Below, one piece after another: positions 39,871 to 58,546 of a DNA stretch of 64,000 nucleotides. This DNA is from Clostridiaceae bacterium. Its GTDB lineage: Bacteria > Bacillota > Clostridia > Christensenellales > CAG-138. The position numbers and the translations under genes are program-made. Where the stretch lies: the NCBI GenBank assembly GCA_039680365.1, contig JBDKTD010000020.1:1521-65520 (forward strand), in the 5' to 3' direction. How positions within the stretch are numbered: position 1 is the first letter of the stretch; the number at the start of each line of letters is the position of its first letter. Below the pieces are notes generated by a model. That model saw only the letters and a list, made by a program, of their open reading frames with translations, was not told the DNA's origin and searched no databases.

Positions 39871-39892
39871 CGGAGACGGAAAAAGGGGTGTA

Positions 39893-41005
39893 ATGATGCT
39901 GGATCTGGATTTTTACCGCGGCAGACGGGTATTTCTTACGGGGCATACGGGCTTTAAGGGCGCGTGGCTCTGCAAGCTGCTCTCCAGCCTCGGCGCGGAG
40001 GTCTATGGCTTTGCCGGGCCGCCGCCGACGCTTCCTTCGCTGTATCAAATTGCGAATATCGAGTACGACGTCCACTCCGCCATCGGGGACGTCCGCGACC
40101 CGCTGAGCCTTCGCGCGGCGTTCTTGGAAGCGCGGCCGGAAATCGTTCTGCATCTGGCGGCGCAGCCGATCGTGCGCAGGAGCTACCGGAAACCTGCGCT
40201 GACCTACGAAACCAACGTGATGGGAACCGTAAACATTCTGGAGTGCGTGCGCGCGTCAAAATGCGTCCGCTCGTTTGTCAACGTTACGACCGACAAGGTT
40301 TACCTCAACCGCGAGTGGGAGTGGGGTTACCGCGAAAACGAAATGCTCGACGGGCTCGACCCGTATTCAAACTCCAAGTCCTGTTCGGAGCTCGTGACCC
40401 ATAGCTACAAAGCGAGCTTTTTTACGGACGAACACGGCAGGCCGACCGTTCCAATTTCCACCGCGCGGGCGGGAAACGTCATCGGCGGCGGGGATTTTGC
40501 CGCGGACAGGATTATTCCGGACTGTGTGCGCGCGGCGCTCGGCGGTCAGGAGATCAGCATTCGGTATCCGCATTCCGTCCGGCCGTACCAGCATGTGCTG
40601 GAACCGCTCTGCGCGTATTTAATGATCGCGGCACACCAGTACGAAACGCCCGCGCTCGCCGGTTGGTATAACGTCGGCCCGGACGACGCGGACTGCTACG
40701 AAACGGGCGATCTGGCGGAACTGTTTGTCCGCGCATGGGGCGGCGGGCTGAAATGGGTCAGCCGGGAAGAGAACGGCCCGCATGAAGCGAACTATCTCAA
40801 ACTGAACTGCGACAAGCTGAAAAAGAACTTCGGCTGGAAGCCGACCTGGCGGCTGCCGCAGGCGGTGGAAGAAACGGTTGAATGGACAAAATGCTGGCGA
40901 GACAGCGGGGATGTTCGCGCCTGCATGGACCGGCAGATCGACACGTTTTTTGAGGATATGGGCGCAGGCTGCCCGGAGACGATTCGAACGGCAAGCGCCG
41001 TTTAG
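39893..41005 (+). CDS. rfbG: CDP-glucose 4,6-dehydratase
   Basis: FYRGRRVFLTGHTGFKGAWLCKLLSSLGAEVYGF plus the YSNSK catalytic motif, immediately after rfbF. Confidence 0.85.
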   Translation: MMLDLDFYRGRRVFLTGHTGFKGAWLCKLLSSLGAEVYGFAGPPPTLPSLYQIANIEYDVHSAIGDVRDPLSLRAAFLEARPEIVLHLAAQPIVRRSYRKPALTYETNVMGTVNILECVRASKCVRSFVNVTTDKVYLNREWEWGYRENEMLDGLDPYSNSKSCSELVTHSYKASFFTDEHGRPTVPISTARAGNVIGGGDFAADRIIPDCVRAALGGQEISIRYPHSVRPYQHVLEPLCAYLMIAAHQYETPALAGWYNVGPDDADCYETGDLAELFVRAWGGGLKWVSREENGPHEANYLKLNCDKLKKNFGWKPTWRLPQAVEETVEWTKCWRDSGDVRACMDRQIDTFFEDMGAGCPETIRTASAV

Positions 41006-41025
41006 CGAAGAAAGGGGGGTATCGT

Positions 41026-41961
41026 ATGCCGGGTATGATCCGGGTTATCATCACCGGGGCGGACGGGTTTGTAGGGAGTTACACCGCGCGCTGTTTTGCC
41101 GAGCACGGCGTTTCCGTTCTGGCCGTGGATCGTTTGGCGGAGCCGCGGCGGCTAGTTCTGTCCAAGCGGCTGAGCTATCTTCAAGCCGATATTACGGATT
41201 TAGAATCGCTTCGCGCTGTTCTGCCGCAACTGGAATTTGATACGTTTATCCACCTTGCGTGGATGGGTTCCGCCGGGAGTGAGCGGTCGGATTACCGACT
41301 GCAGATGCAGAACGCGCTCTGCGCGGTGGACTGCTTGAAGTTTGCAAAGCAGATTGGCTGTAAGCGCTTCGTTTGCGCGGGCAGCATCATGGAGCGCGAA
41401 GTGGAAGCGGTGGTGCATTCGCAGGGCAGCAAGCCCGGCGCCGCCTATATCTACGGCATGGGCAAGCACATCGCCCACAGCCTCTGCAAAGCCGTTGCCG
41501 CGGAGATCGGCGTCGATCTCATTTGGCCGATAATTACAAACGCGTATGGCGAGGGCGAGTATTCGCCGCGATTTATCAATACGACGATACGAAAGATCCT
41601 CCGCAGGGAACCCCTGCAGTTTACCTCCGGTACGCAGAACTACGATTTCGTGCATGTGGAAGACGTGGCGCGCGCGCTGTATCTCATCTCCGAGCATGGC
41701 AAACCGTTTTATGAGTACCTCATCGGCAGCGGAAGCGCGCGCCCGCTCAGGCAGTTCGTTCTGGAACTGCAGCGGACGCTCGCGCCGGAGGCAGAACCGC
41801 TGTTTGGCGATTTGCCGTATACGGGCATCAACATGCCGCTTTCGGCGTTCGATACTTCCGTAACGGAGAAAGATTGCTTTTTTCGCGCGGAAATACCGTT
41901 TGCCGCAGGCGTCCGCCGTACGATGGACTGGCTGAAAACGGTGGAAGGAGAACTGGCATGA
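41026..41961 (+). CDS. NAD-dependent epimerase/reductase (extended SDR), probable CDP-4-keto-6-deoxyhexose reductase/epimerase
   Basis: VIITGADGFVGSY Rossmann motif and YGMGK (YxxxK). Its position in the CDP-sugar block supports the role. Confidence 0.6.
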   Translation: MPGMIRVIITGADGFVGSYTARCFAEHGVSVLAVDRLAEPRRLVLSKRLSYLQADITDLESLRAVLPQLEFDTFIHLAWMGSAGSERSDYRLQMQNALCAVDCLKFAKQIGCKRFVCAGSIMEREVEAVVHSQGSKPGAAYIYGMGKHIAHSLCKAVAAEIGVDLIWPIITNAYGEGEYSPRFINTTIRKILRREPLQFTSGTQNYDFVHVEDVARALYLISEHGKPFYEYLIGSGSARPLRQFVLELQRTLAPEAEPLFGDLPYTGINMPLSAFDTSVTEKDCFFRAEIPFAAGVRRTMDWLKTVEGELA

Positions 41962-42557
41962 CGCAGCCGTTTCGCTTTGACCCGCTTCCGCTGGAAGGCG
42001 CGTATTGCGTTACGCCGTTTTCCGCGTTTGACGAGCGCGGAGGCTTCATTAAGGACTACAGCGCGGAGGCGTTTGCCGTCAACGGTATAAGCCATCCGCT
42101 CAAGGAAGTGTTTTACACGCTCTCGCATCGCGGGGTGATGCGCGCGCTGCATTTTCAGCTGCAGCGCCAGCAGGCGAAACTTGTTCGCTGCGTTTCCGGG
42201 CATGTTTACGACGTTATCGTCGATCTTCGCCCCGGCTCCCCAACCTTCGGCCAGTGGCTCGGGTTCGACCTCACGGGAGAAAATCGGACGAGCCTCTACG
42301 TTCCGCGTTACTTCGGTCACGGGTATCTGGTGCTGGAGGAGTCCATCGTTTCCTACCAATGCGCGGAGAGCTTTTTTGCCGAGGGGGATTCCGGCATCCT
42401 CTGGAACGATCCCGACCTCGCTATCCGCTGGCCGCTGGAAAAAATCGGCGGGGCGGATCATATGATTCTCAGTCAAAAGGATCAAAACCTGATGCGCTTT
42501 TGCGATTATGCCGCACTTATGAAAAAATCGGCAGGCGCTTTGGAGACGAACGGATGA
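41958..42557 (+). CDS. RmlC-like cupin sugar-nucleotide 3,5-epimerase
   Basis: ATGA overlap start. The sequence FDERGGF, RGVMRALHFQ, KLVRCVSGHVYDVIVDLR, GHGYLVL matches dTDP-4-dehydrorhamnose 3,5-epimerase-family motifs. Confidence 0.75.
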   Translation: MTQPFRFDPLPLEGAYCVTPFSAFDERGGFIKDYSAEAFAVNGISHPLKEVFYTLSHRGVMRALHFQLQRQQAKLVRCVSGHVYDVIVDLRPGSPTFGQWLGFDLTGENRTSLYVPRYFGHGYLVLEESIVSYQCAESFFAEGDSGILWNDPDLAIRWPLEKIGGADHMILSQKDQNLMRFCDYAALMKKSAGALETNG

Positions 42558-43570
42558 ACGTTGTGTATTCCAGCAGCGATTCTTATGCGGAGATCGCGGG
42601 TATTTCCATGCTGTCGCTGTTTGAAACCAACAGGGAGGCCGGTTGGATCCGCGTTTTTATTCTGGATAACGGGATATCCGAACAGAACCGTGCCCGCCTG
42701 AACGAAACGGCGCGCGCGTTTGCGCGTGAAATCGTCTTTCTGCCGCCGCCGGATCTCGAACAGACGCTGGGGCTGCGTGTGGAAACCTATAAATGGAACA
42801 TCGGCACATTCTATCGGCTGTTTCTATGCTCCGTGCTGCCGCAGTCCGTGGAGCGGCTCATCTACCTAGACTGCGATACGATTGTGCGCGGAAGCCTTGC
42901 TCCACTCTGGACGCTCGATTTAAAAGGCTGCTCCATGGCGGCTGTGGACGATACCCGCGCCGACGCGTATAAGCTCGAACTCGGCCTGAACACGAGCGAC
43001 ACCTATACCAACAACGGCGTGATGCTGGTCGATCTGGCAAAATGGCGCGCCGAAGGGATTGAACGCCTGTTCATTGAAAAACTTGTCGAGAGAAAGGGCA
43101 AGTTGCCGTTTGTCGATCAGGGCGTGCTCAACGCGGTGCTTTCGCGCCGCAAAAAGGTGCTAGTGCTGCCGCCGCGCTGCAACGCCATGACGTTTCTATT
43201 TTACTTCAGCTATCCGGAGCTTCTGCGGTTTCGGCGTCCCAGCAGTCCTTATTTGACGCGCGAGGAGTTCGAGGAGGCGAGAGTCAACCCGCTGATCGTT
43301 CACTTTTTCCCCTGTTTCATGGCGGGGACGCGCCCCTGGAACGAAAAGGACACGCATCCGTTTACGCCTGAGTACCGCGCTTGCAAAGCCAGATCGCCCT
43401 GGAAGGACGCGCCATACCGCGCCGACGAGCGAAGCGCGCCGAGAAAGCTCTTTACCGTGGTTTGTAATGTGCTGCCGCGGCCAATCATGCTTTTCTTTGT
43501 TTCTCTGCTGCATGCACAGCTTCTGCCCTTTTTTCGAAAGGCGGCGGCATGGATCAAAAAGAAGACGTAA
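42554..43570 (+). CDS. Glycosyltransferase family 8
   Basis: ATGA overlap start MNVVYSSSDSYA. DxD in YLDCDTIV. Pattern typical of GT8 (LgtC/GspA-like). Confidence 0.75.
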   Translation: MNVVYSSSDSYAEIAGISMLSLFETNREAGWIRVFILDNGISEQNRARLNETARAFAREIVFLPPPDLEQTLGLRVETYKWNIGTFYRLFLCSVLPQSVERLIYLDCDTIVRGSLAPLWTLDLKGCSMAAVDDTRADAYKLELGLNTSDTYTNNGVMLVDLAKWRAEGIERLFIEKLVERKGKLPFVDQGVLNAVLSRRKKVLVLPPRCNAMTFLFYFSYPELLRFRRPSSPYLTREEFEEARVNPLIVHFFPCFMAGTRPWNEKDTHPFTPEYRACKARSPWKDAPYRADERSAPRKLFTVVCNVLPRPIMLFFVSLLHAQLLPFFRKAAAWIKKKT

Positions 43571-43584
43571 CAGGAGGGAACCCT

Positions 43585-44826
43585 TTGCGGATACTGATGA
43601 TCGAGCGCTACCTCTATCCGTTTGGCGGCGCGCAGACCTATATGCTCGCAATCGCCGATTGGCTGAAAGCAAACGGCCACGAGGTGGAGTTTTTTGGTAT
43701 GTTCGACCAGCGCAACGTCGTTGGCAACAGTGCGGGGGCATACACGCGCAATATGGACTTTCACACAAAGTCGCTCGCGCGCTTTACCTATCCGTTTACG
43801 CTGCTCTATTCGCCAGGCGCGCGCAGAAAGCTGAAAAAGGTGATCGACGCGTTTCGGCCGGACCTTGTCCATCTGCACGGGTTCAACTTTCAGCTCACGC
43901 CTTCGGTCATCTACGAAGTCAAAGCGCGCGGCATTCCCCTGATCACAACGATTCACGACGCGCAGATCGCCTGCCCGTGTCACCGGCTCTATATTGAGCA
44001 TAAGGGTGAACCCTGCCTGCGCTGCGTTTCGGGAAAGTACGTTAACTGCGTTTCCCAGCGCTGCATTTCCGGTTCGCTGGCAAAGAGCGCGCTCGCCGCG
44101 GCGGAGTCGTATCTCTATCACGCGCTGCATACCTACGACAAGATTGACCGCTTCATCCTGCCGAGCCGGTTTCTGTATAACGTTCTCTTGGAGAATGGCA
44201 TACCGGAATCCAAAATGCTGGTGCTGCACAACTTTTCCCGTATGAACCGGCGCGAAACCGCGGCAAAAAAACCTTCCGGCGAGTATGTTCTGTATTTTGG
44301 CAGGCTCAGCCGGGAAAAGGGGATGGAAACTTTTGCGCGCGCCTGCGCCCGCTTGCCGGAAATACCGTTTCTGGTTGCGGGAACCGGCCCGTCGGAAACT
44401 TGCTTTGCAGATCTGCCAAATGTAACGCTGCTGGGGCATGTTGGCGGCGCGGAACTGGAAACGCTGATCGAAGGCGCGGCGTTTTCGGTATATCCTTCCG
44501 AATGGTACGAAAACTGCCCGATGTCCGTTCTGGAATCGCAGGCGCTGGGTGTTCCGGTCGTCGGCGCGCGCATCGGCGGGATACCGGAGCTGATCGAGGA
44601 CGGCGAGACGGGCGTTTTATTCAAAAGCGGAAGTGAAGAGGAACTGACGCATGCAATTCGCTCGCTCTGGAACGATAAGGCGGCGCTGCAAGGTATGCAA
44701 GACAGCTGTCTTGCCCAGCCGCGCCTGAGCGACACGAACCAGTACTGCCAGCGCTTGATGAGCGAGTATATGAACGTTTGCGTTCGCGCCAAGGAGGGAC
44801 AAAACAGTTGCCTGATTTACTCATAA
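43585..44826 (+). CDS. Glycosyltransferase family 4 (GT-B)
   Basis: TTG after AGGAGGG (alternative ATG at 43549). The C-terminal E-x7-E region is SEWYENCPMSVLESQALGVPVVG..GGIPELI. Confidence 0.75.
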   Translation: MRILMIERYLYPFGGAQTYMLAIADWLKANGHEVEFFGMFDQRNVVGNSAGAYTRNMDFHTKSLARFTYPFTLLYSPGARRKLKKVIDAFRPDLVHLHGFNFQLTPSVIYEVKARGIPLITTIHDAQIACPCHRLYIEHKGEPCLRCVSGKYVNCVSQRCISGSLAKSALAAAESYLYHALHTYDKIDRFILPSRFLYNVLLENGIPESKMLVLHNFSRMNRRETAAKKPSGEYVLYFGRLSREKGMETFARACARLPEIPFLVAGTGPSETCFADLPNVTLLGHVGGAELETLIEGAAFSVYPSEWYENCPMSVLESQALGVPVVGARIGGIPELIEDGETGVLFKSGSEEELTHAIRSLWNDKAALQGMQDSCLAQPRLSDTNQYCQRLMSEYMNVCVRAKEGQNSCLIYS

Positions 44827-45845
44827 CGGGAGCCGTTGCTCTGGCGGCGGCTGTTCTCGCCCTGGCCGGCTTGCAAAAGCGCGGCGAAAACGAAGCGGTG
44901 TTTTCTCTGCCCACCGCGCAGACGCTCCGCGCCGCTTGCAGCGTTGTGGTCATTCTGGTGCATATTCCCGTGGCGTTTGGCAACAAAGCGCAGGATGCGA
45001 TCGGCAGCTTTGCGTTTATCTGCGTAACGCTCTTTTTCCTGCTCTCCGCGTACGGGCTGACCACGCAGTACCGCCAGAAGGGCGAAGCGTATATTAAGCA
45101 CTTCTGGAGAAACCGCCTTGCTTCGCTGTTGATTCCAATGGTGTTGATCAATGTTGCGGGTATTCTGCTGGGCAACCATCCGGAGCGCAGCTTGTTGCTG
45201 CGGCTTGTTTGGCCGAACGATTACGCGCTGACGCTGCTGCTCTATTACGTGGTGTTTTGGATTGTGCATCGCGTCAAGCGCTTGTCGGACGACGCGCGGG
45301 ACTGGATTTTGATTGGGTTTACGCTCGTTACCAGCCTCGCCGTGCAGGGGTATGTTGCGTCCAGCGGAACGCAGGCGTCGCTCTGGCCGGTGGAACGGCT
45401 GGGGTTTGCTTACGGCATTCTGGCCGCGCGCTTTGCCGGCGGAACGACGGAGCGGAAACTTGTTCAAAACGGAAAGAAATGGCTGCTATGGGCGCTTTGC
45501 TCATTTGCGGTATTCTGCGGGCTGGGGTTTCTGTATCTGCGTTTTAAGTTCAGCGGCATATGGCTTGCCTACGCGCTCAAAGCGGTTCTCGGAGCCGCCG
45601 CCATTTTGCTGATTACAATACTGCTGACGCGTTACCGTCTCGGCAACAAAGCCTCCATAGCGGCGGGGGAAACGTCCTACGAAATCTACCTTGCGCATGG
45701 AGCCGCGATCCTGTTTTTGGAGCGCGCCCTGCCACAGCTTTCAAGCGGCACGTTCATCCTCTGCGTTCTGGGGCTGACCGCCGCGCTTGCCATAGCGGTC
45801 AAACTGCTTGCAAGTCCGCTCGTAAAGCTGGTTCGAAAGAAATGA
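44808..45845 (+). CDS. Membrane acyltransferase family 3 (polysaccharide O-acetyltransferase)
   Basis: About ten TM helices, with VVILVHIP and SYEIYLAHG motifs typical of Acyl_transf_3. TTG start after AAGGAGGG. Confidence 0.7.
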   Translation: MPDLLITGAVALAAAVLALAGLQKRGENEAVFSLPTAQTLRAACSVVVILVHIPVAFGNKAQDAIGSFAFICVTLFFLLSAYGLTTQYRQKGEAYIKHFWRNRLASLLIPMVLINVAGILLGNHPERSLLLRLVWPNDYALTLLLYYVVFWIVHRVKRLSDDARDWILIGFTLVTSLAVQGYVASSGTQASLWPVERLGFAYGILAARFAGGTTERKLVQNGKKWLLWALCSFAVFCGLGFLYLRFKFSGIWLAYALKAVLGAAAILLITILLTRYRLGNKASIAAGETSYEIYLAHGAAILFLERALPQLSSGTFILCVLGLTAALAIAVKLLASPLVKLVRKK

Positions 45846-45902
45846 CCATACGAAAGCCGCGGCATCCGTGAATGAACGGTGCCAAGGCTGGCCGGAGGGC
45901 AA

Positions 45903-47111
45903 ATGAAGCGTATTCTGATCGTTATGCTGTCGCTCTATAACGGAGGCGCGGAGCGCAGCCTCGTGAACCTGCTCAACGAGTTCGACTGCCCGGAGTTCCA
46001 GATCGACCTGCTGTTGTTTCGAAAAGAAGGCATGCATCTTCCGCAGGTGCCCGCGTCTGTTCGCCTGCTGGACGCATCGAAAACGCTCGGCGCACTCTAT
46101 GAACGCCGCCCGAACGGAAAGCGCCTTTCCAGCTATCCGGCCTATTTCGTCAAAATTATCGCTTCATTGATATCCCGGCTTGCCGAACCGAAAAACAAGC
46201 GGAATGCGGATGCGTTCCGCTGGAAGCACTTTTACCGGCGCGTCGTGGAAGAACTTCCAACGCCTTACGATGTTGCGGTCTCCTTCGATTCCGGCGAAAT
46301 GCTGTATTACATCGTGGACAAAGTGCATGCAAAACGAAAGATCACCTGGGTGCATACCAACTACCGCGAGTATCAATTGCCAACGCGGTATGACCGGCCG
46401 TACTTTGCAAAGCTGGATCAAGTCGTTACCATTTCGCCCAAGTGCAAAACGGCGCTGGAAGAGGTTTTTCCAGAGTTTATCGGCAAGTTTCTCTGGCTTC
46501 CGAACCTGATTTCTTCCCGCAAGATTGAACATCTGAGCCTGGCCTATAAACCGGAAGAGTTCGCTGCCTGCCCGGGTGCGAACATACTCTCCGTGGCGCG
46601 TTTGAGTTTTGAAAAAGGAATCGATATCGCCGTGGAAGCCGCTGCAGAGCTGAAAAAGCGGGGCATTCCGTTTTGCTGGTTCATCGTTGGCGAAGGCCCC
46701 GAAGGTGTGCGTCTTAGCCAGCAAATCCATTCGCTCGGGCTGGAAGACGACGTCGTGCTGCTGGGTACGCGTGAAAACCCTTACCCCTATATACGCGGGT
46801 GCGACGTGCTGGTTCAGCCTTCCCGCGTGGAAGGCAAGTCCCTGGTGACGGACGAAGCGCGCATTTTGCATAAGCCGATCGTCTGCGCAAACTACGAGTC
46901 CGCGCCGGATCAAATTGAACACGAGGTAACGGGGCTGATCGTGCCCACTACGGGCGAAGGCATCTCCGCGGGCATTGTTCGCCTGCTGGAAGACGACGCG
47001 CTCAGAGAAGAGATTATTGCAAATTTGAAAGCAAAAGAGCAGGGCAACGCGGAGGAAATCCGCCGGTATTACGCGCTGTTTGAGGGTGTTACTGCATGCA
47101 CGCAAGGGTAA
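45903..47111 (+). CDS. Glycosyltransferase family 4 (GT-B)
   Basis: Start MKRILIVMLSLYNGGAERS after GGAGGG. C-terminal PSRVEGKSLVTDEARILHKPIV. Confidence 0.75.
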   Translation: MKRILIVMLSLYNGGAERSLVNLLNEFDCPEFQIDLLLFRKEGMHLPQVPASVRLLDASKTLGALYERRPNGKRLSSYPAYFVKIIASLISRLAEPKNKRNADAFRWKHFYRRVVEELPTPYDVAVSFDSGEMLYYIVDKVHAKRKITWVHTNYREYQLPTRYDRPYFAKLDQVVTISPKCKTALEEVFPEFIGKFLWLPNLISSRKIEHLSLAYKPEEFAACPGANILSVARLSFEKGIDIAVEAAAELKKRGIPFCWFIVGEGPEGVRLSQQIHSLGLEDDVVLLGTRENPYPYIRGCDVLVQPSRVEGKSLVTDEARILHKPIVCANYESAPDQIEHEVTGLIVPTTGEGISAGIVRLLEDDALREEIIANLKAKEQGNAEEIRRYYALFEGVTACTQG

Positions 47112-48340
47112 AAGAAGCGTTCATCCTCCTTCGGCGCGCGTATTTTCTGCTGCTGATCAGTTTGCCGCTGCTGACGATTGCGGAACGGTATATTCCGTTC
47201 CTTGGCGCGTTCACGTCCGCCGCGTTCGTAATCGTCTCCCCGCTGACGCTAGTTTCCAACAAGCGCAAAATTGCGATTCTCGTTGAGTACGCGGTTGCCG
47301 GAGCCTTGCTCTGGCTCAACTGGAAGAACATTGCGGACGTGGACTACCATCTGGATATCGTAAAATGTACGCTCGTGTTGATTTCGGTCTCCCACCAATG
47401 CGCGGACAGGGAATTCAAGCGCGAACTGCTCGTATTCATCCGCAGGCACATGCGGTATATCGAAACCCAGTTGATTCTGGTCGCGCTCGTAAATCTCGCG
47501 GTCATTCCCTTTTCGTACGGGTATTCCAATAAATACAGCGCCATGTGGGAAATTTCCGCTTTTCAGGGAATCTATATCGACCCGCATCAAGCGTCGTATC
47601 GGCTGTTTATCAGTGCAGCGCTCCTCTTTACGCTGTCGGTCTGCCGTAAGCGTCTGGGATTGCTCGGCAGGCAGTCGCGGCTGGTTTATTCGGTTCTCGC
47701 GCTTGCGGTGCTTTTGCTGGTGGTCAGAACGGGCGCGCGGGTTGCGCTGGTTCTGGCGCCGCTTCTGTTTCTTTTTACCATGCGCAATCTCCTGCCCAGA
47801 GTGAAGCTGGAATCGGGCGGCGCTTCCGTTGCCGTTTCCGCAGCGCTGGGCGCTTTGATACTGCTTGCCGCTGGGGCGTTAATCTTCGCCTTTTTTCGCT
47901 CAAGCGTGGGCGAAAAGACGATCGCCGCGTTTTCCGGAAAGAGCTTCGACAACGGGCGCAGTATCATTCGTTCGATCAGTTTGGCGACGTACGCTTCCTG
48001 GAACGCTTGGAAAAAGATATTCGGCGGCGGGCACGATATCGTCCATCAACTCACGCTCAGCAGGATGTATTTCAGCCTCTGGGCGCATAACGACTACCTG
48101 CAGATGCTCATGGGCGCGGGCTTGCTGGGGCTGGGTCAGTATCTTGTGGATACGATTCGCATGCTGCGGCAGTTTTTCCGTGCGCGTTGGGTGGGCGCGC
48201 TCACGTTTGCGGCGCTTGTGTTTACGGCATGGTTTAACGGCTTGATGCCGCATGTGCTGTTTGTTTCCACGCTGCCCATTCTTTGCGGAGCGCTGGAAGC
48301 GTTTGACGGATATGACCTGCGGGAGGTTCGGCATGGATAA
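47096..48340 (+). CDS. wzy: O-antigen polymerase/ligase-family membrane protein (Wzy-like)
   Basis: Polytopic, with the Wzy_C-type motif WAHNDYLQMLMGAGLLGL. Confidence 0.7.
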   Translation: MHARVKEAFILLRRAYFLLLISLPLLTIAERYIPFLGAFTSAAFVIVSPLTLVSNKRKIAILVEYAVAGALLWLNWKNIADVDYHLDIVKCTLVLISVSHQCADREFKRELLVFIRRHMRYIETQLILVALVNLAVIPFSYGYSNKYSAMWEISAFQGIYIDPHQASYRLFISAALLFTLSVCRKRLGLLGRQSRLVYSVLALAVLLLVVRTGARVALVLAPLLFLFTMRNLLPRVKLESGGASVAVSAALGALILLAAGALIFAFFRSSVGEKTIAAFSGKSFDNGRSIIRSISLATYASWNAWKKIFGGGHDIVHQLTLSRMYFSLWAHNDYLQMLMGAGLLGLGQYLVDTIRMLRQFFRARWVGALTFAALVFTAWFNGLMPHVLFVSTLPILCGALEAFDGYDLREVRHG

Positions 48341-49415
48341 AATCGGGTTGTTAACCATACACAATACGGCGAACTACGGCTCAACGCTGCAGGCGTTCGC
48401 TCTCTGCCATGCGCTGGCGGAGATCGGGCTGGACGCGGAACTGATCGATTACGAAAACGAAGCGATTGAAGCGCGCGAGCGCCCCATTACGCGAAGGCCC
48501 TGCACGGGGGCCAAGATGTGGCTCCAACAGCGTTTGTGGGGCAAAGCGTTCGAAGCGCGGTACGACGGAATGCGCGCCTTTTTGGAAGAGCATGTGCGCT
48601 TTTCCGCGCCGTATACGCGCGCGAACATCGCGCTTGCGGGCGAGAAATACAAGGGCTTTGTGCTGGGCAGCGATATTGTCTGGAGTCCCGCGATCACCGG
48701 CGGAGACCTGACGTATTTTTTAGATTTTGTTCCGGACCGCGTTCCCAAAATCGCGTTCGGCTCCTCCATCGGCAACCAGTGGGATGAAGCGACCGCGCGC
48801 ACAGTGGCTCCGTTGATCGCACGGTTTTCCCGCTTGTCCGTCCGAGAAGAGGAAGCGGTTGAATGGCTGAGCGAACTGACCGATCAGGAGGTGGAACTCG
48901 TATGCGATCCCACCGTGCTCTATCGGGCGGGATTCTGGAGCGGGTTTGCGGAGCCTGCCGACGCAAAGGAGCCGTACGTACTCGTCTATATGCGCGATCC
49001 TGAGGATCGGTGCCTGCTGGATGCGAAGCAATACGCCAAAGCGCGCCATTTCAGGGTGAAATACATCAACTTCTGGACGCCGGTGCCCGGCGCGGAATCG
49101 GTTAAGCCCTGCACCATTGGCGCGTTTCTGGGACTGATTCAAAACGCGGAGTGCGTTTTTACCGGCTCCTACCACGGCATGCTTTTCTCGCTCTGTTTTG
49201 GCAGGGAACTTTACTATTACTACAACGGACATTCTGCGAGGATGCGCTCCATTGCGCAGTATCTGCATCTGGAGCGGCGCAACGGGCTGGACTGCCCGGA
49301 AGCAGGGGAACCAATCGACTACACGCAGGTGTTTCCCTTACTGGAAGAACTGCAGAACCGTTCCTGGGAAATACTTCGCAAAAGCTGTCTCGTGTTTCAA
49401 AACGGCGAGAATTGA
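48333..49415 (+). CDS. Polysaccharide pyruvyl transferase
   Basis: Start MDKIGLLTIHNTANYGSTLQAFAL (typical N-terminus of the PS_pyruv_trans family). Overlaps the wzy stop. Confidence 0.75.
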   Translation: MDKIGLLTIHNTANYGSTLQAFALCHALAEIGLDAELIDYENEAIEARERPITRRPCTGAKMWLQQRLWGKAFEARYDGMRAFLEEHVRFSAPYTRANIALAGEKYKGFVLGSDIVWSPAITGGDLTYFLDFVPDRVPKIAFGSSIGNQWDEATARTVAPLIARFSRLSVREEEAVEWLSELTDQEVELVCDPTVLYRAGFWSGFAEPADAKEPYVLVYMRDPEDRCLLDAKQYAKARHFRVKYINFWTPVPGAESVKPCTIGAFLGLIQNAECVFTGSYHGMLFSLCFGRELYYYYNGHSARMRSIAQYLHLERRNGLDCPEAGEPIDYTQVFPLLEELQNRSWEILRKSCLVFQNGEN

Positions 49416-49421
49416 GGAACT

Positions 49422-50861
49422 ATGGAGCAAACTATCGATCCCATCGGCGGGCGCGCAGTCAAGTCCGGCGTTTGGTACACAATATCGTCAATCCTGTCCA
49501 AGTCGATCATCTTTTTAACGACGCCTATTTTTACGCGCATCATGTCGGTGGAGGACTTTGGCGTCGCTTCCACCTTTACCTCCTGGTATCTCGTGCTCGG
49601 CGTCATTTTTTCGCTGAACCTCATGTACAGCATCGGCAGGGCGAAGCTGGACTTTCCCGGAAAGCTGGAAGAGTACACGGGCAGCATGATCGTTCTTGCC
49701 ACAACGTTTTCGCTAATCGTCTTTGGCGCGTCGTTCTTCTTTCAAAAACAGGTCGCCGGCTTTTTGAATATGAACTGGACGCTCGCGGTTCTGATGATGA
49801 TCTATCTGCTGGCTTCGTCGGTCGTCACGTTCAAGCAGGCGAGCATCCGCTATCAATATCAGTATAAGGGCAACGTTGCCATCTCGCTGATCATCTCCGT
49901 GGGCTCGGTGGCCTGCTCGTTTGCGCTGTTTGCAATCCCCACGCTGGAGCGATATCTGGCAAAGATTATCGGCTCCATCATTCCTTCTGTCTTTCTGGCG
50001 CTGGTCTTTACCGTGCAGGGGATAGCTCGCAAAAACTACAAAATCAGCGGCGAATACTGGAAGTACGGTTTAATCATCTCCGTGCCGCTGATCTTCCACT
50101 CGCTTTCCATCAATCTGCTTTCGCAGATTGACCGCGTTTTGATCAGCCGGTTCTGCGGAGACGGCGACGCGGGGATCTACAGCCTTGCGTACCAATATAC
50201 CCATCTCGTCTTCATCGTCCTCAGCGCGGTGAACGAAGCCTGGCTGCCGTGGTTCCACGATACGCTGAATGCCGGCAACACGGAAGCGGTCAAGAAAAAC
50301 GTTCAGAAACTCATCGTCTTTGGCGGTTTCATCGGTTTCGGGTGCGTAAGCCTCGCGCCGGAGATTATGGCGGTGCTTGGAACGGAAGCGTACACGCCGG
50401 GATTGCGCGTTGTCGCTCCGCTGATGGTTGCGATTCTCTGCGGGTTTGTGTTTCAGCAGTATGAGCATGTTGAACTGCATTTTAAAAAGACCTGGTATAT
50501 CTCCCTCGGCACGGGGATTGCCGCCGCGGTGAACTATGCGCTGAACTGGTGGCTGATTCCCAAATACGGCTTCGTAGCCGCCGCGTATACGACGATGGCG
50601 AGCTATGTGCTCGTAACCGTGATTCACTGGTTCATCAACCGTGTGGTGCTGAAAAAACACATCTATCAGGATATGAGAATGTTTTTCATACTGTTTGCGT
50701 TCAGCGTGGTTTGTCTTGCAATGCCGCTTCTGTATGAGCGGGTTATCGTTCGGTTTGCGGTTCTGCTGGCCGCCTGTGCGGCGTACCTTTTTGGTAGCCG
50801 CAAGATGATTATCGGCATTCTTGCCAACCGGAAAAAAGCGCTGAAGCCGAAGTCCGTTTGA
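49422..50861 (+). CDS. wzx: MOP-superfamily oligosaccharide flippase (Wzx)
   Basis: 479 aa with about 12-14 TM helices. N-terminal VKSGVWYTISSILSKSIIFLTTPIFTRIM, typical of polysaccharide-biosynthesis flippases. Confidence 0.8.
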   Translation: MEQTIDPIGGRAVKSGVWYTISSILSKSIIFLTTPIFTRIMSVEDFGVASTFTSWYLVLGVIFSLNLMYSIGRAKLDFPGKLEEYTGSMIVLATTFSLIVFGASFFFQKQVAGFLNMNWTLAVLMMIYLLASSVVTFKQASIRYQYQYKGNVAISLIISVGSVACSFALFAIPTLERYLAKIIGSIIPSVFLALVFTVQGIARKNYKISGEYWKYGLIISVPLIFHSLSINLLSQIDRVLISRFCGDGDAGIYSLAYQYTHLVFIVLSAVNEAWLPWFHDTLNAGNTEAVKKNVQKLIVFGGFIGFGCVSLAPEIMAVLGTEAYTPGLRVVAPLMVAILCGFVFQQYEHVELHFKKTWYISLGTGIAAAVNYALNWWLIPKYGFVAAAYTTMASYVLVTVIHWFINRVVLKKHIYQDMRMFFILFAFSVVCLAMPLLYERVIVRFAVLLAACAAYLFGSRKMIIGILANRKKALKPKSV

Positions 50862-53837: not shown

Positions 53838-54827
53838 CTACACGGACGGCGTTTCGCGCTCCTTCTTCCGCTTGCGGAACGCAAAGAGCTTGAGCATGGC
53901 GAATGTCACCGGAATGCCGACCACCGCCGCGAGGATATAGGTAATCAGCTTGCCAAAGCCGAGCCAGTTCATAAACACCAGCACAAACGCGTTTTGAATC
54001 AAAAAGTTCGGGATATAGGAAACGCAGAACTTGATATACTTTGGAAAACTCAGCGCCTCTTTGAAGGTAAAAAAACTGTTGAGCAGATACGAAATCGTCA
54101 GGCTCAGCAGATACCCCGCCACGAACGCCAAATTCGGCTGGAGCAGCAGCGAAAAAAGGTACGCAAACAGCACGCCGTTGAACGTGTTGATCCCACCGAT
54201 GAGAAGAAAGCGCGCAAACTCCTTGGAGAGGAAAAAACGCTTCGCTTTTTGCATGGCCGACGGCTTGTATTCCGCCCAGGGAATCGCCCTTCCGTCGGAA
54301 ACGAGATAGCTCTCGCTCGCCAGCGCGGCGAGCGGAGAATCGGAGAGCGAGTCGGAGTAAAAGCGTTTGATTGGCGTTTTGCCGAACGTTTCCCGAAATC
54401 GCGCGACCTTCTCTTCGCCGTAGCAGTTTTCGCCGGTATAGGCGCCGGTTTTCGGATCCACGCGCGAGGCGATCAGGTTTTGAATACCGAGTTCGGCGCA
54501 GATCGGCCGGAGCAGGAACTCCGGTGAGGCGGAGATGATCACATCGTCCGCCGCCTTCTGTTCAAGGTACCATGGCTCGATTTTCTGCTGCCGCGCACTC
54601 CAAAAGAAGCGGACCTCAGCGTCGATATCCTTTAAACCGCGGAAGTACCGGTAGAAACGCTGTTTGAACGCCGTTTTGCTGATTAGCCCGAGCGCGTACG
54701 GAACAAACGCGAGAAACTGCCCCGGCAGAAACCGCAGCAGCAGAGGATGGCGGCGGTAACAGAAACGCGTAAAATCAAGCGTACTGTCGCCGGAATAGAT
54801 GGTTTTGTCGAAATCGTAAACGTTCAA
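53838..54827 (-). CDS. HAD-IB phosphatase fused to a GtrA-like four-helix membrane domain
   Basis: N-terminal MNVYDFDKTIY (DxDxT) and YSDSLSD. The C-terminal 130 aa (FARFLLIGGINTFNGVLFAYLF...) are GtrA-like. Confidence 0.7.
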   Translation of the reverse strand: MNVYDFDKTIYSGDSTLDFTRFCYRRHPLLLRFLPGQFLAFVPYALGLISKTAFKQRFYRYFRGLKDIDAEVRFFWSARQQKIEPWYLEQKAADDVIISASPEFLLRPICAELGIQNLIASRVDPKTGAYTGENCYGEEKVARFRETFGKTPIKRFYSDSLSDSPLAALASESYLVSDGRAIPWAEYKPSAMQKAKRFFLSKEFARFLLIGGINTFNGVLFAYLFSLLLQPNLAFVAGYLLSLTISYLLNSFFTFKEALSFPKYIKFCVSYIPNFLIQNAFVLVFMNWLGFGKLITYILAAVVGIPVTFAMLKLFAFRKRKKERETPSV

Positions 54828-54881
54828 ATTGAGAGTCTCTTTCTGATCCGCGTTTCGTTTTGCGGCGCGGACGCGGAGAAG

Positions 54882-55748
54882 TTACAGGTAGATCAGCACG
54901 ACCCAGATGACACATAGAATTGCCACAAGCGCCAGCAGCAGCTTGTCGCCCCAAAGCACGTCCACCGGGTCGCCGTCGGAGTTGCCTTCAATGCGCAGGC
55001 TGTAGCTCATGCAGATGAGTATGACAAGCGGCACCGTCCAGACCACGCCGTTGGAATGGATGCGCGCGGTCGTGATGGGGTCTACGCTCCAGAGCGAGTA
55101 AAACGCAATGGTCAGCGCAAGGCAAAGGTACATGTTTTTATCGAGGAAATCGCGGGTGTAAAAACGCAGAACCTTGCGCTGCGCACCGTCCGGCTGGCGG
55201 ATCAGTTCGTTGCGGCGTTTGCCGAGGCCGAGGTAAAAGCTCATGGCGATCACGGTTAGGTACATCCAGCGGGAGATTTCAATGCCGCTGAGCGCCGCGC
55301 CGTAGAGCACGCGAATCAGAAAGCCGGAAACGAGAATCGCGATATCGACGATGGGCCTGTTCTTAAGCCCCAGACTGTAACCAACGTTGAGCGCGAGGTA
55401 CAGCAGCAGATAGAGCCAGCCGTACCAGTGCACCGCTTTTGAAAAATAGTGCAGGACTGCAGAAGCGATCAGCAGGATCCCCGCAAGAATAACCGCCGAT
55501 TTGACGGGGACTTCGCCGCTGGCGATGGGGCGGAACTTCTTTGTCGGGTGCTCGCGGTCTGTCTTGACGTCCATGATGTCGTTGATGATATAGACCGCCG
55601 AAGAGAGCAGGCAAAACGATACAAAGCCGAGCGCCGCCTGACGCAGCAAACCCAACGCAAAGAGCTGACCGCCAAAAAGAAACGGCAGCAGGATCAGGCC
55701 GTTCTTGATGTAGTGCTTGAAGCGCATGAGCTTTATGTATTTTTTCAT
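54882..55748 (-). CDS. UbiA-superfamily prenyl-phosphate phosphoribosyltransferase (decaprenyl-phosphate 5-phosphoribosyltransferase-like)
   Basis: MRFKHYIKNGLILLPF and NDIMDVKTDREHPTKKFRPIASGE match the DPPR-synthase (Rv3806c-type) branch of UbiA enzymes. 8-9 TM helices. Confidence 0.7.
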   Translation of the reverse strand: MKKYIKLMRFKHYIKNGLILLPFLFGGQLFALGLLRQAALGFVSFCLLSSAVYIINDIMDVKTDREHPTKKFRPIASGEVPVKSAVILAGILLIASAVLHYFSKAVHWYGWLYLLLYLALNVGYSLGLKNRPIVDIAILVSGFLIRVLYGAALSGIEISRWMYLTVIAMSFYLGLGKRRNELIRQPDGAQRKVLRFYTRDFLDKNMYLCLALTIAFYSLWSVDPITTARIHSNGVVWTVPLVILICMSYSLRIEGNSDGDPVDVLWGDKLLLALVAILCVIWVVLIYL

Positions 55749-55786
55749 CGCGGTTCCTCCCTCTTACTCTGATTAAAAACAGCCGG

Positions 55787-57478
55787 TTACGCGGGGTAAT
55801 TCCGTATGCCAAAGAGGATGATTTGCAGGATATTGCCTGCGTTCAGGATCAGCATCGCGGCGGCGATACCGCCAAGAACGACAGCCTGCGCCGTTTTCCA
55901 TTTTTTCAGTAAGGCGTCGAGTGCAAGAAATGCCAGCGCCAGATACGCCCAGGAAAAATACAGCGTGTAGAGAACGAGCCCGTTTTCCGCCGTGCCCCAG
56001 CCAACGAGACACAGCAGTACAAAGGAAAACAGCACCCAGCATAAACTCACGCGCGCAAGCTTGTTTTTATAGTTCAGCGCAAATCCAACGACGGCGAAAA
56101 TCAGCACCGCAACGCCGACCGGGTTGACTGAAACGACGGGCAGGAGCTGGTACGAAATGTGCACATAGCTATTCGTATCGACGCCCGCAAGCGGACGGAC
56201 AACGCAGGCGGCGGCAAAGTTGATAAACTGCAGCAGTTTATCGCCAAAGCCGAGCCCCGCGCCCGAAAAACTCATCAGCTCCTTGAGCGAAGCCGCCGCG
56301 CTGTAGAGCAGCGGCAGCTGACCGAACACCGCGAGAAACGCGAGCAGTAATCCTCCCGCTTTGAGCAGTTCGACTAGAACCGATCGAGCGCTCTTTTTGT
56401 ATGGCAGCAGGAAAATCAACGCGCCGCTGGTGAGCATAGAGCCCGTTGCGGCAACCCAGGTGAACGTCCGCCCGGGCGCGGCCTCACAGAAGCCCTCCAC
56501 AAGGAAGATCACCCAGAACAGCGAGAAGATATACTGCTCAACGGTGAGCAGAAACAGCATCGTCGGGTACGAAACCGTCATCAGCGCAAGAAACAGCGCC
56601 TTTTTCAGCCCCTCCAGCCGGAGCAGCCTGGCAAGGATTACAAAGCAATACAGCAGCAGCGCGGCCTGCAGAATGCCAAGCAGAATGACGTATGTGTTCG
56701 GCACAAAGAAGAGCGCTTTGGAGAGCAATCTGGCCGCAATGTCAAACGGCATGGCGAACACGCCGAACAGCGGCTGACGGATATCGTTTTGAAACGCGTT
56801 GATGTTGAGAAATGTATGATCCTCTAGCAGCATGCCGGAGTCCGCCGTGTAGACCACGTCGTAAGGGATTCCGGCATCGGTAAACGCGGTTGTCATGCTG
56901 TAGACGCAGGCGATCAAAACCGCGGCGGCCAAACCCGCAATCAGCAGGTAGCGGCGTTCCACTTTGTCCGTCATTCGGAAACGGCGTCCCGCTTCCAGCA
57001 AAATGCGGTCAAGCGCGGCATAGAACAGCGTAAACAGCGCAAACAGCGCAAACGCCGCAATCCCGACGGCGAGCCAGCGCTCCAGAAATCCGTACAAGCC
57101 GCCGGAGAGGGGCAGTACGCCGCCGATTTTTTCCAGAATGCGCTCGCTCATGGAAGCGCGGAACCATTCAGAATACCGGTGCGCGGCATACAGCGCAAAC
57201 AGGACGGCTATTGCAGCCTTGGCCGGACTGACGCGGAGAAACACGCGCTCCAGCGCCTGAAAGCGGAACGCGAGCAGCGCGCAGAGCACAAGCGAACAGA
57301 AGACGCCGACAAGGCCGATGCCGGTCGAACCCCGCTGGGAAAACAGCAGCGTCGCCGCGGCGCCCGAAAGGGCAAACAAAACTTTGAAGATCCAGTGAAA
57401 GCGCAGCGGCCGATCGGAAGAGCGGCTCGCAAAAGCGGCTTTGAAAAGCCGGCGTTCGGGGCGGGATTGAACTTCCAT
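55787..57478 (-). CDS. Large polytopic membrane protein, possible GT-C glycosyltransferase using a polyprenyl-phospho-sugar donor
   Basis: 563 aa with more than 12 hydrophobic helices. It is the first gene of a three-gene unit with the UbiA and HAD-GtrA genes. No motif firmly recognised. Confidence 0.5.
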   Translation of the reverse strand: MEVQSRPERRLFKAAFASRSSDRPLRFHWIFKVLFALSGAAATLLFSQRGSTGIGLVGVFCSLVLCALLAFRFQALERVFLRVSPAKAAIAVLFALYAAHRYSEWFRASMSERILEKIGGVLPLSGGLYGFLERWLAVGIAAFALFALFTLFYAALDRILLEAGRRFRMTDKVERRYLLIAGLAAAVLIACVYSMTTAFTDAGIPYDVVYTADSGMLLEDHTFLNINAFQNDIRQPLFGVFAMPFDIAARLLSKALFFVPNTYVILLGILQAALLLYCFVILARLLRLEGLKKALFLALMTVSYPTMLFLLTVEQYIFSLFWVIFLVEGFCEAAPGRTFTWVAATGSMLTSGALIFLLPYKKSARSVLVELLKAGGLLLAFLAVFGQLPLLYSAAASLKELMSFSGAGLGFGDKLLQFINFAAACVVRPLAGVDTNSYVHISYQLLPVVSVNPVGVAVLIFAVVGFALNYKNKLARVSLCWVLFSFVLLCLVGWGTAENGLVLYTLYFSWAYLALAFLALDALLKKWKTAQAVVLGGIAAAMLILNAGNILQIILFGIRNYPA

Positions 57479-57508: not shown

Positions 57509-57537
57509 ATTTTACCATAAGAGCCGACTGTTCACAA
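57509..57537 (-). promoter_or_regulatory. Candidate promoter of the membrane-protein/UbiA/HAD-GtrA unit
   Basis: The minus strand reads TTGTGA-N17-(TGG)TAAAAT, an extended -10. It is followed by an AAAGGAG RBS before the 57478 start. Confidence 0.5.
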
Positions 57538-57631: not shown

Positions 57632-58546
57632 TCAAGCCTTTTCGCGGGGACGAACGGACTGCGCGATTCTGTCGATGACCGCGCCATCCGCCGAGGAGTC
57701 GAACTTTCGCGCAAACAGCGCGCCGGAGGACGTCAGCGATTCAAAATCTTCGCTCAACAGCACCTTGGGCGAGCGTCCGCCATCCGACCAGTCCACATAC
57801 CGCATGGTGGCGGCGAGCTCGTCGTCCCAGCCGGAAAAGAAGCGGCGCTCCATGAACGGCGAATTGAAAAGGATCGTCTGGAGCCAGAGCTCGTCCGCGC
57901 AGACCGAATGTCGAAAGTAAGCGCGATAGCGCGGGAGCTGTTCGAGCACATAGAGAGCAAATTTGTGCGTAATGGAGAACCACACCGCGCCTTTTTGGAA
58001 CACGACGGGACACCGTTTGATACGGTTGACGCCGAGCGCGTTCTGCAGCCTGTTCCAGAGGGGTTCGGTTCGCTTATAGATGCGGAGGGCGAACGGCTTG
58101 ACCGGACGCTGAAACGAATACTTGCCCAGCCGCTGGGCGAGTACTCGCGGGTCGGCGTTTTTCTGGTCGAACGCGACAAACTCTTTGTCCGCGTGCTCCA
58201 AAAAGAACGCGCGGATTTCCGCCTGCGGTTTCAGCGGCAGATCGACGCCGGAGAGCAGGTGGTAATAGGCGTGCTCCGTCTTGACCGCTTCACATAAAAG
58301 CGAAACAATCGCGTCGATAAACACCTCGCTGCCCCAGCGCGCGTCCAGGCGCGGAACGAACCGAATGGAAGCCTGTTTGACGATCGCCGAAAGCTCGCCG
58401 TCATGAATCGCCGTCGCTTTTTTGTCGATATGGAGGTAGAGGTCGTTTTCCGCGTCGTCCAGCAGCGAGAGCAGCAGTTTGAGCTGCTCCGGCTTATCGT
58501 GCGCCGTAATCAGGTACGCGTGGCGCGAAGGCGTTTGCTGCGTCAT
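57632..58546 (-). CDS. Glycosyltransferase family 14 (core-2/I-branching 'Branch' family)
   Basis: HAYLITAHDKPEQLKLLLSLLDDAENDLYLHIDKKA and the later DELWLQT / RKFD motifs are typical of the Branch domain. Confidence 0.7.
   Translation of the reverse strand: MTQQTPSRHAYLITAHDKPEQLKLLLSLLDDAENDLYLHIDKKATAIHDGELSAIVKQASIRFVPRLDARWGSEVFIDAIVSLLCEAVKTEHAYYHLLSGVDLPLKPQAEIRAFFLEHADKEFVAFDQKNADPRVLAQRLGKYSFQRPVKPFALRIYKRTEPLWNRLQNALGVNRIKRCPVVFQKGAVWFSITHKFALYVLEQLPRYRAYFRHSVCADELWLQTILFNSPFMERRFFSGWDDELAATMRYVDWSDGGRSPKVLLSEDFESLTSSGALFARKFDSSADGAVIDRIAQSVRPREKA

Follow-up and report, generated by a model that had tools for sequence, protein, structure and literature searches.

A putative three-gene pentofuranose transfer module with a phosphatase-GtrA fusion next to a capsule locus in a Clostridiaceae bacterium

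We report that a 64,000-nucleotide stretch of a Clostridiaceae bacterium contig (JBDKTD010000020.1; hereafter the window) carries three contiguous genes that probably constitute a Gram-positive three-component system for adding a pentofuranose, most likely D-ribofuranose, to a surface glycan outside the cytoplasmic membrane. The genes are co-directional on the minus strand, occupy exactly positions 53838-57478 in the list of open reading frames (ORFs) and encode, in that order, proteins of 563, 288 and 329 residues: a large membrane protein of what we call family B, a UbiA-type phosphoribosyltransferase, and a fusion of a HAD phosphatase to a GtrA domain (Table 1). In the proposed route the UbiA enzyme would make polyprenyl-P-ribose-5-P from phosphoribosyl pyrophosphate (PRPP), a step for which the homology is strong and the activity deduced from it. 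The HAD-IB domain would then take off the 5-phosphate to give polyprenyl-P-ribofuranose and the fused GtrA domain would carry this lipid to the outer leaflet, the fusion physically coupling dephosphorylation with export. Finally, the family-B protein would, judging from its fold, topology and gene position, act as a GT-C-like glycosyltransferase that transfers the ribofuranose to the acceptor. The latter would most probably be the polysaccharide of the convergent Wzx/Wzy locus, before an LCP enzyme attaches the polymer to the wall; an inverting GT-C would give an alpha linkage, like that of the Citrobacter prototype.

A bolder set of propositions goes beyond this: that the HAD-GtrA protein is a coupled phosphatase-flippase which passes its product to its own GtrA domain, that the family of the 563-residue protein is a new GT-C ribofuranosyltransferase family at the level of CAZy, and that gut Clostridia and dairy lactococci bear unreported ribofuranose side chains on their capsules and exopolysaccharides. 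Taken together, these have in our judgement about an even chance of being right.

Pfam and NCBIfam scans covered every window ORF of at least 90 residues. The 563- and 288-residue ORFs are separated by 38 bp and the 288- and 329-residue ORFs by 54 bp, and the promoter-like site and the terminator-like hairpin (Table 1), which are consensus matches only, would fit a three-gene transcription unit. The 563-residue protein is 100% identical to a deposited protein from a 'Clostridiaceae bacterium' metagenome-assembled genome (P0121); given this identity and the many homologues of all three proteins, these are real conserved genes and not chance ORFs.

Table 1. Positions and strands of the module, its parts and the neighbouring features in the window
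Feature	Position	Strand	Basis
Putative GT-C-type polyprenyl-phosphate-ribofuranose:glycan ribofuranosyltransferase, 563 aa, family B	55787..57478	-	Fold, topology, gene position
Conserved acidic loop of the 563-aa protein, residues 197-250 (YDVVYTxDS...NDIRQPLFG), candidate catalytic loop	56729..56890	-	Conservation and positive-inside count
Polyprenyl-phosphate 5-phosphoribosyltransferase (PPPRS/DPPRS type, UbiA superfamily), 288 aa	54882..55748	-	NF008978, Rv3806c match
Catalytic loop II motif NDIMDVKTDREHPTKKFRPIASGE, residues 56-79 of the 288-aa UbiA protein	55512..55583	-	Alignment
HAD-GtrA fusion protein, 329 aa	53838..54827	-	Pfam, NCBIfam
HAD-IB phosphatase domain, residues 1-190 of the 329-aa fusion; putative polyprenyl-P-ribose-5-phosphate 5-phosphatase	54258..54827	-	PF12710, TIGR01488
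GtrA domain, residues 206-317 of the 329-aa fusion, four transmembrane helices; putative polyprenyl-P-ribofuranose flippase	53877..54212	-	PF04138
Terminator-like GC hairpin and T-run right behind the HAD-GtrA stop codon	53822..53836	-	Consensus scan only
Convergent terminator-like hairpin behind the LVIVD gene, facing the terminator of the module	53746-53766	+	Consensus scan only
Sigma-70-like promoter match, 9/12 with TG extension, 31 bp upstream of the 563-aa ORF	57509..57537	-	Consensus scan; weak evidence
GT14 'Branch' glycosyltransferase directly upstream of the module, outside the three-component core	57632..58546	-	PF02485, 66 bits
Wzx/Wzy locus for a capsule or wall polysaccharide, convergent with the module; probable origin of the acceptor glycan	about 31.5-53.6 kb (feature 32103..50861)	+	Pfam/NCBIfam

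The three predicted proteins

For the 288-residue protein the NCBIfam model NF008978 (decaprenyl-phosphate phosphoribosyltransferase) gave 209.4 bits over residues 4-287, a small margin above its cut-off of 207; related DPPRS-type and HAD-UbiA models gave 162-187 bits and the Pfam family UbiA (PF01040) 76.8 bits. The only matches among PDB sequences were two entries of Mycobacterium tuberculosis Rv3806c (8j8j, E=1.4e-36, full length). When aligned with homologues from Clostridium butyricum, Lactococcus and Solibacillus, the Rhodococcus DPPRS and the Sinorhizobium NGR234 PRP-PPPRS, residues N56, D57, D60, D64, R65, H67, T69, K70, R73, K177, R178 and E181 are invariant, and the motifs NDxxDxxxDRxHxTKxxR (loop II) and KRxxE (loop IV) are intact. 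In Rv3806c the active site is lined by residues of loops II and IV, and in the Citrobacter ORF15 N247/D248/D251/D255 together with R366/E369 were mutated, such residues being needed for activity in both enzymes (PMC11127046); the residues in the window protein appear to correspond to these sites, matched by motif position rather than by direct alignment. By homology the protein is a polyprenyl-phosphate 5-phosphoribosyltransferase, with its activity deduced from that homology, as had been proposed from the DNA sequence when it was described as DPPR-synthase-like. It also belongs to the UbiA superfamily, and could as such be taken for an aromatic or haem prenyltransferase (menaquinone, ubiquinone, haem O) with incidental neighbours. 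We regard this as highly improbable, since the sole PDB match is Rv3806c, the DPPRS-specific motifs are intact, and the DPPRS model passes while the MenA, UbiA, CyoE, ChlG and GGGP-type models, with cut-offs of 180-420, reached 17-60 bits. With menaquinone and haem O models at no more than 60 bits, a menaquinone/haem-type identity was rejected. In a phage collection the only match to this protein was one unannotated 6.6-kb fragment.

The 329-residue protein starts with MNVYDFDKT, which includes a DxDxT motif, and matches PF12710 (HAD, 83.5 bits) and TIGR01488 (HAD subfamily IB, 49.9 bits, cut-off 45) as well as PF04138 (GtrA_DPMS_TM, 51.1 bits, cut-off 26.1); the fusion of a DxDxT HAD to a GtrA-like membrane domain that the sequence-only reading had described is thereby borne out. 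Its suggestion that the HAD part is a plausible dephosphorylation enzyme also holds, in that all catalytic motifs (D5/D7, S99/S101, K140 and D159/D163) are invariant across 18 homologues. In an AlphaFold (AF2) model (pLDDT 84) a Rossmann-plus-cap domain forms the N-terminus, and four long helices, those of GtrA, come after it, spanning residues 202-315 with one helix broken at 270-272. In Foldseek searches the HAD part resembled HAD-IB and phosphoserine-phosphatase folds best, including 3fvv, and the GtrA part the transmembrane (TM) domain of dolichyl-phosphate mannose synthase DPMS (9ep0, 5mlz). The fusion lacks a signal peptide and its C-terminus is basic, which predicts a cytoplasmic location for the HAD domain, on the side of the membrane where the PRPP-derived lipid intermediate is made.

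The 563-residue protein matches no Pfam or NCBIfam family above cut-off, the nearest being DUF6080 at 21.7 bits (cut-off 27), and gave nothing meaningful against PDB sequences. A word-based search found 102 relatives, one of which (P0164) has a precomputed DUF6080 match, and by profile search the family comprises 926 clusters at 50% identity, of which 680 have E<=1e-30. The protein has about 13-14 hydrophobic segments, and an AF2 model from an alignment of 40 sequences has a pLDDT of 89.7 and a pTM of 0.89. All PDB matches of this model with a Foldseek probability of at least 0.84 are GT-C enzymes (ALG12 at 1.00, then ALG9, Pmt4, ALG3 and AftD); EmbA-EmbB follow at 0.54, and transporters and receptors reach no more than 0.1. 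These matches are weak, with E-values of 0.05-1.1 and TM scores of 0.29-0.50. Among 40 homologues the best conserved sites are D207, D213, N231, D232, R234, Q235 and P236 in the loop 197-250 (invariant or at least 90% conserved), E314-Y316, and GWGTAENG at 493-500. The loop 197-250 holds 2 K/R against 7 D/E, and its flanking loops 7 and 4 K/R, so that by the positive-inside rule the conserved acidic and polar residues are predicted to lie on outward loops. The N-terminal four helices are variable within the family and mostly absent from a 462-residue Lactococcus homologue, which aligns from residue 173 onwards (hhalign probability 100%, E=1e-59). The core of family B therefore begins with one TM helix followed by the acidic outward loop, which is the usual arrangement in GT-Cs. 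Hence, from fold, topology and position we infer a GT-C-like transferase, albeit one whose resemblance to known members is weak; the possibility that this protein is a GT-C using the donor had been raised from the sequence, and the model and Foldseek results agree with it within the limits of their E-values.

It is fairly improbable, in our view, that the 563-residue protein is a transporter, a polymerase/ligase-like protein or a scaffold, with the ribose being used by an enzyme encoded elsewhere. Such a role would be compatible with the lack of a significant sequence or profile link to known glycosyltransferase families, with Foldseek E-values above 0.01 and with a sub-threshold DUF6080 match as the sole Pfam hint. 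Yet the high-probability fold matches are all GT-C while transporters stay at or below 0.1, the best-conserved residues are acidic or polar and on predicted outward loops, and the capsule locus already has its own Wzx and Wzy. Moreover, fusions of the HAD domain to family B tie the protein to the same pathway, and recognised GT-Cs with PMT_2 matches occupy the equivalent position elsewhere. Specifically, other genomes have, beside UbiA and HAD(-GtrA), large membrane proteins of at least three families that are unrelated by BLAST, and the Clostridium butyricum-type family in this third position includes members with matches to Pfam PMT_2, a recognised GT-C family. A variable, acceptor-specific GT-C next to conserved donor-making genes would be exactly the pattern of Gtr-type systems.

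Our literature search found no characterisation of family B or DUF6080, of ribofuranose in lactococcal exopolysaccharide (EPS), or of any of this in follow-ups on GT136. Nor did it give a paper characterising the HAD-GtrA fusion, which thus appears to be uncharacterised, as had been surmised.

Recurrence of the module in Bacillota

Homologues of the HAD-GtrA fusion comprise 5613 protein clusters at E<=1e-3, with both domains in all 120 listed (the Clostridium butyricum fusion is 56% identical to the window protein), and the fusion is found in at least 556 places across species-representative genomes. For the analysis of gene neighbourhoods we used the 80 loci listed and local hidden Markov model searches; 50 of the 80 have the HAD-GtrA fusion. 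All 80 listed are from Bacillota, and a rare import from Actinobacteria was rejected on this ground. A DPPRS-type UbiA gene lies within 10 kb in 21 of the 50 fusion loci and within 1.5 kb in 18, and 16 of these 18 have, within 4 kb, a protein of at least 400 residues with at least eight TM segments.

All three genes are present in unchanged order in the close relatives L005, the closest genome locus (labelled Christensenellaceae), and L006, and as split ORFs in the fragmented contig L003. The trio recurs in L005, L006, L028, L082, L085, L091 and L092, and all three parts are present in L028, L063 and L082. Distant family-B members, at 30-48% identity, keep UbiA and HAD(-GtrA) genes adjacent (L092, L091, L090 and Lactococcus cremoris pF27D). 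Specifically, the locus of P0161 (L092, 37% identity) reads Wzy-GT2-Wzx-GH16-familyB-UbiA-HAD-GtrA, the order seen in the window, and that of P0143 (L091, 44% identity) familyB-HAD-GtrA-UbiA. A Paenibacillus member (L090, 34% identity) has GtrA, GT2, UbiA, an acyltransferase and family B within 6 kb; the 195-residue ORF between its GT2 and UbiA genes was checked as a stand-alone HAD and is not one. The mobilisable Lactococcus cremoris plasmid pF27D (L085) carries, within an eps cluster and in this order, Wzy, Wzx, family B, UbiA, HAD, GtrA, NAGPA and LCP genes, among them ones annotated as 'decaprenyl-phosphate phosphoribosyltransferase', 'HAD-IB family phosphatase' and 'GtrA family protein'. 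As exceptions, L004 has no UbiA gene within 10 kb and P0221 is a family-B protein that stands alone. The three genes are hence co-conserved in close as well as distant Bacillota, a point on which the sequence-only reading had staked its case.

The phosphatase also occurs in other arrangements. A stand-alone HAD (51-61% identical) is found directly behind UbiA in L059, L067, L074, L082 and L083, a HAD domain forms the N-terminus of the family-B membrane protein in P0196, P0260 and P0289, and in proteobacteria (the NGR234 locus; Kelly et al.) the HAD is fused to the synthase itself. That the phosphatase is fused, in one lineage or another, to each of the other three components constitutes a strong 'Rosetta stone' argument that the four activities belong together. 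Further HAD fusions were seen to a calcineurin-like phosphoesterase and, for HAD-GtrA, to a C-terminal BspA-type leucine-rich repeat (LRR) domain (L068 9899-11770, L084 10001-11764 and L051 9977-12202). Some orphan HAD-GtrA genes, without a UbiA gene nearby, lie directly behind housekeeping genes, either plsY-gpsA or the isoprenoid precursor genes ispD-ispF, as read from N-terminal sequences only (L020, L027 and L030 at about 8.3-10 kb; L040 and L042 at about 8.8-10 kb).

Sugar, acceptor and genomic surroundings

DprE1/DprE2 reference sequences were looked for on a Rhodococcus replicon that carries a glf-PAP2-DPPRS region but did not lie within the 50 kb read, so that epimerases were sought by Pfam scans of the 64-kb window. 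Among all ORFs of at least 90 residues in the window there is no FAD_binding_4/DprE1-type protein, and no short-chain dehydrogenase/reductase (SDR) within 13 kb of the module; the window SDRs are 13-17 kb away, in the CDP-glucose pathway. With neither a DprE1-like oxidase nor an adjacent epimerase in the 64-kb window, ribofuranose is predicted as the default sugar, and the earlier argument that the lack of DprE1/DprE2 makes ribofuranose likelier holds for these 64 kb. Citrobacter transfers xylose when one particular SDR is present and ribose when it is absent, and its GT-C accepts both (PMC11127046). The same machinery could in this way handle another sugar, if epimerases encoded elsewhere gave arabinofuranose or xylofuranose before export; candidates would be DprE1/DprE2-like enzymes, an ORF13-like SDR, or the two SDR-type ORFs of the capsule locus, which are without specific assignment (383 aa at 37952-39103 and 311 aa at 41026-41961). 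That 64 kb of the genome were visible leaves room for this, as does L091, where an FAD/amine-oxidase-type gene and a second GtrA lie near the module. We nevertheless consider a sugar other than ribose unlikely. Epimerase genes of the systems described are part of the modification cluster; the three genes of the window, and of most of the Bacillota modules examined, adjoin one another with no additional soluble oxidoreductase. Moreover, the window SDRs stand beside a glucose-1-phosphate cytidylyltransferase (TIGR02623, 399 bits) and a CDP-glucose 4,6-dehydratase (TIGR02622, 425 bits) and therefore belong to a nucleotide-sugar pathway. The genes at 37952-41961 would predict a CDP-derived 6-deoxy- or dideoxy-hexose in the capsule. 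In L091 (9692-13659) the protein beside the module that accompanies the second, stand-alone GtrA is a 519-residue FAD/amine-oxidase-type protein; the pair could represent an epimerising or a second modification branch.

The capsule locus encodes a KOW/NusG-like protein, LCP, Wzz, CpsB, an initiating Bac_transf protein and the CDP-glucose pathway, as well as GT8, two GT4, an acyltransferase, Wzy, a pyruvyl transferase, Wzx and an LVIVD protein; Wzy is here a Wzy_C-like membrane protein below threshold (20.3 bits, cut-off 31.7). Its polymer is our preferred acceptor, and the module is found inside eps or Wzx/Wzy clusters in L085 and L092. Alternatively, the donor pathway could operate as proposed and the acceptor be a lipid, a protein of the S-layer or pilin type (as with TfpW in Pseudomonas aeruginosa), or a teichoic or lipoteichoic acid. 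Clostridium butyricum and related clostridia carry the module alone, away from polysaccharide loci, and the window module is itself transcribed convergently to the capsule locus and not inside it, with LRR and NAGPA surface proteins encoded upstream. We hold such an acceptor to be a minor but real possibility. Against it, in each of three independent lineages (the window, pF27D and L092) the family-B module is located within a Wzx/Wzy cluster or at its end, and family B is unlike the GT-C family of the stand-alone clostridial modules, as would be expected if the GT-C sets the acceptor.

A number of points weigh against the proposal of a ribofuranose-adding system acting on the capsule polymer. 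The whole assignment is computational, with activities deduced from sequence, models and gene position, and of the four steps only the first has strong homology to characterised enzymes, the other three being inferred. Compared with the HAD-UbiA model PRK08238, the HAD domain gave nothing at E<=10, and its alignment to the N-terminus of the NGR234 PRP-PPPRS has 25% identity (E=1e-3). It is of another subfamily than the PRP domain that proteobacterial PPPRS carry as a fusion, and its substrate is therefore assigned by association and not by orthology. The flippase role of GtrA proteins has itself only been 'proposed' (PMC11127046). In the DNA fetched, 29 of the 50 HAD-GtrA loci have no UbiA gene, and by neighbourhood the fusion is thus not exclusively tied to the ribose pathway; in L033 (Erysipelotrichaceae, 10001-13548) it is followed by a GtrB-like GT2 and a 553-residue protein with 11 TM segments, the UbiA gene lying 9 kb upstream, and one GtrA domain may there serve both a hexose and a pentose decoration system. 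Family B showed no significant profile similarity to the PMT_2-like family A (hhalign probability 2.8%), to family C, or to a 658-residue protein that occupies the GT-C position in the Kelly-type locus of NGR234 (hhalign probability 0.2%), the last chosen by locus position as the sole Kelly-type representative and a stand-in for ORF12/GT136. Comparison with the Clostridium butyricum 490-residue protein was likewise non-significant, and because all these profile comparisons were so, we do not claim common ancestry of family B with known GT-Cs. Finally, the epimerase scan is limited to 64 kb of the genome, and the capsule polymer as acceptor is a guess from gene position.

As to the remaining surroundings, the minus-strand region 57632-63977 upstream of the module encodes the GT14 'Branch' protein, an LRR protein and two NAGPA phosphodiester glycosidases. 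In relatives an ORF of 304-306 residues occupies the GT14 position, with a Pfam Branch match in L003 and a match in length alone in L005 and L006. On pF27D (L085 10830-12659) NAGPA and LCP genes lie directly behind the module, which suggests a recurrent association of NAGPA with these loci. The capsule locus ends with a 912-residue LVIVD/beta-propeller protein with an N-terminal TM segment (50884-53622), convergent with the module, and a related LVIVD protein adjoins the module in the relative L003. A dense signalling island at 4579-19857 has four Ser/Thr protein-kinase paralogues at 9009-10457 (with a C-terminal FHA domain), 12873-15617 (LRRs), 15695-17830 (RCC1 repeats) and 17911-19857, together with a PP2C phosphatase (6383-7549) and another three proteins with FHA domains. 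The GC content is 46% at 2001-4000, which covers a 681-residue ORF without a Pfam family, against 55-60% elsewhere in the window.

Relation to known systems

A three-component pentofuranose pathway has been shown experimentally in Citrobacter youngae, where it consists of a PRP-PPPRS fusion (ORF15), a predicted transporter (ORF14) and a GT-C (ORF12) that founded GT136 (Kelly et al., PNAS 2024, PMC11127046). The same study described such systems as widespread and mentioned Gram-positive candidates; its survey was seeded with the fused ORF15 and named a single Bacillus example, and transporters of possibly two types and one case of a separate PRP were noted (PMC11127046). As the pathway is thus established, the window module is not a new kind of system. 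The sequence-only reading had also considered the pathway unusual outside Corynebacteriales and a few Proteobacteria, which does not stand, in view of this described breadth (PMC11127046) and of the fusion occurring in at least 556 places.

If the assignment is correct, the pathway, shown experimentally only in Citrobacter, extends to a large unexamined set of Bacillota that includes gut Clostridia, Clostridium butyricum, Erysipelotrichaceae, Solibacillus and a mobilisable Lactococcus EPS plasmid, and ribofuranose decorations would be predicted on capsules and exopolysaccharides of undescribed structure. Thousands of annotations as 'HAD-IB family phosphatase' or 'GtrA family protein', as well as an unannotated membrane protein family of about 900 clusters, would gain a concrete function. 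Moreover, a natural phosphatase-flippase fusion would provide a handle on whether GtrA and Rv3789 translocate polyprenyl-phosphate sugars. The Lactococcus plasmid version offers a tractable, food-grade host and is relevant to fermented-milk texture and phage receptors; Clostridium butyricum is tractable as well.

The closest counterpart is the Citrobacter youngae O1/O2 system. All four functions of the Kelly system map onto the three contiguous window genes, and the shared logic, as proposed for the window, runs from UbiA-type PRPP-dependent synthesis through removal of the phosphate by a HAD-type enzyme and export to a GT-C that modifies a finished glycan, with the genes in or beside a polysaccharide locus; the O1 variant likewise lacks an epimerase and adds ribofuranose. 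The two differ in that the HAD is fused to the synthase in Citrobacter and to the flippase in the window, where it is of the HAD-IB type without a detectable match to the N-terminal domain of PRK08238, unlike the Citrobacter PRP type. The window flippase is GtrA-type whereas ORF14 is ArnE/F-like, and the GT-C candidate, which showed no profile similarity to one Kelly-type representative, appears to be of another family and lacks a carbohydrate-binding domain. Instead of the ABC-transporter O antigen of Citrobacter, the host of the window module, a monoderm, has a Wzx/Wzy capsule.

In the mycobacterial decaprenyl-phosphoarabinose pathway the first enzyme, Rv3806c, is homologous to the window UbiA protein, the GtrA-family protein Rv3789 is a proposed exporter, and GT-Cs (Aft/Emb) use the lipid-linked pentofuranose, as proposed here. 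However, the mycobacterial phosphatase (Rv3807c) is a PAP2 and not a HAD-IB enzyme, and mycobacteria use DprE1/DprE2, which the window lacks, so that arabinose is not predicted. The lipid carrier is C50 in mycobacteria and presumably C55 here, and mycobacteria build an essential arabinan whereas the window module is proposed to decorate a capsule. The 'Actinobacterial-style' label that the module had been given is apt only in part, given its HAD phosphatase, its lack of epimerases and its Wzx/Wzy capsule setting.

Gtr-type glucosylation (GtrA/GtrB/Gtr*, Shigella and Salmonella phages) likewise combines a GtrA flippase with a variable, acceptor-specific polytopic transferase, and both it and the window module, as proposed, modify post-polymerisation outside the membrane. 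The donor differs: Gtr-type systems use a GT2 (GtrB) and a UDP-hexose, the window module a UbiA-type phosphoribosyltransferase and a phosphatase that would deliver a pentofuranose. Gram-positive counterparts of the Gtr-type systems are GtcA, CsbB/YfhO and the lactococcal Csd/CflA. In Pseudomonas aeruginosa PA7 pilin arabinosylation a PPPRS homologue also feeds a GT-C (TfpW) outside Actinobacteria, there with a protein acceptor, epimerases (DprE1/E2 homologues) and another phosphatase family, none of which is seen in the window module. With its HAD phosphatase, missing epimerases and capsule setting, the module is closer to a Citrobacter-type side-chain system than to arabinan synthesis, and it differs from that system in its phosphatase-GtrA fusion, other HAD subfamily, unannotated GT-C candidate family, and association with the Wzx/Wzy capsules of monoderm bacteria.

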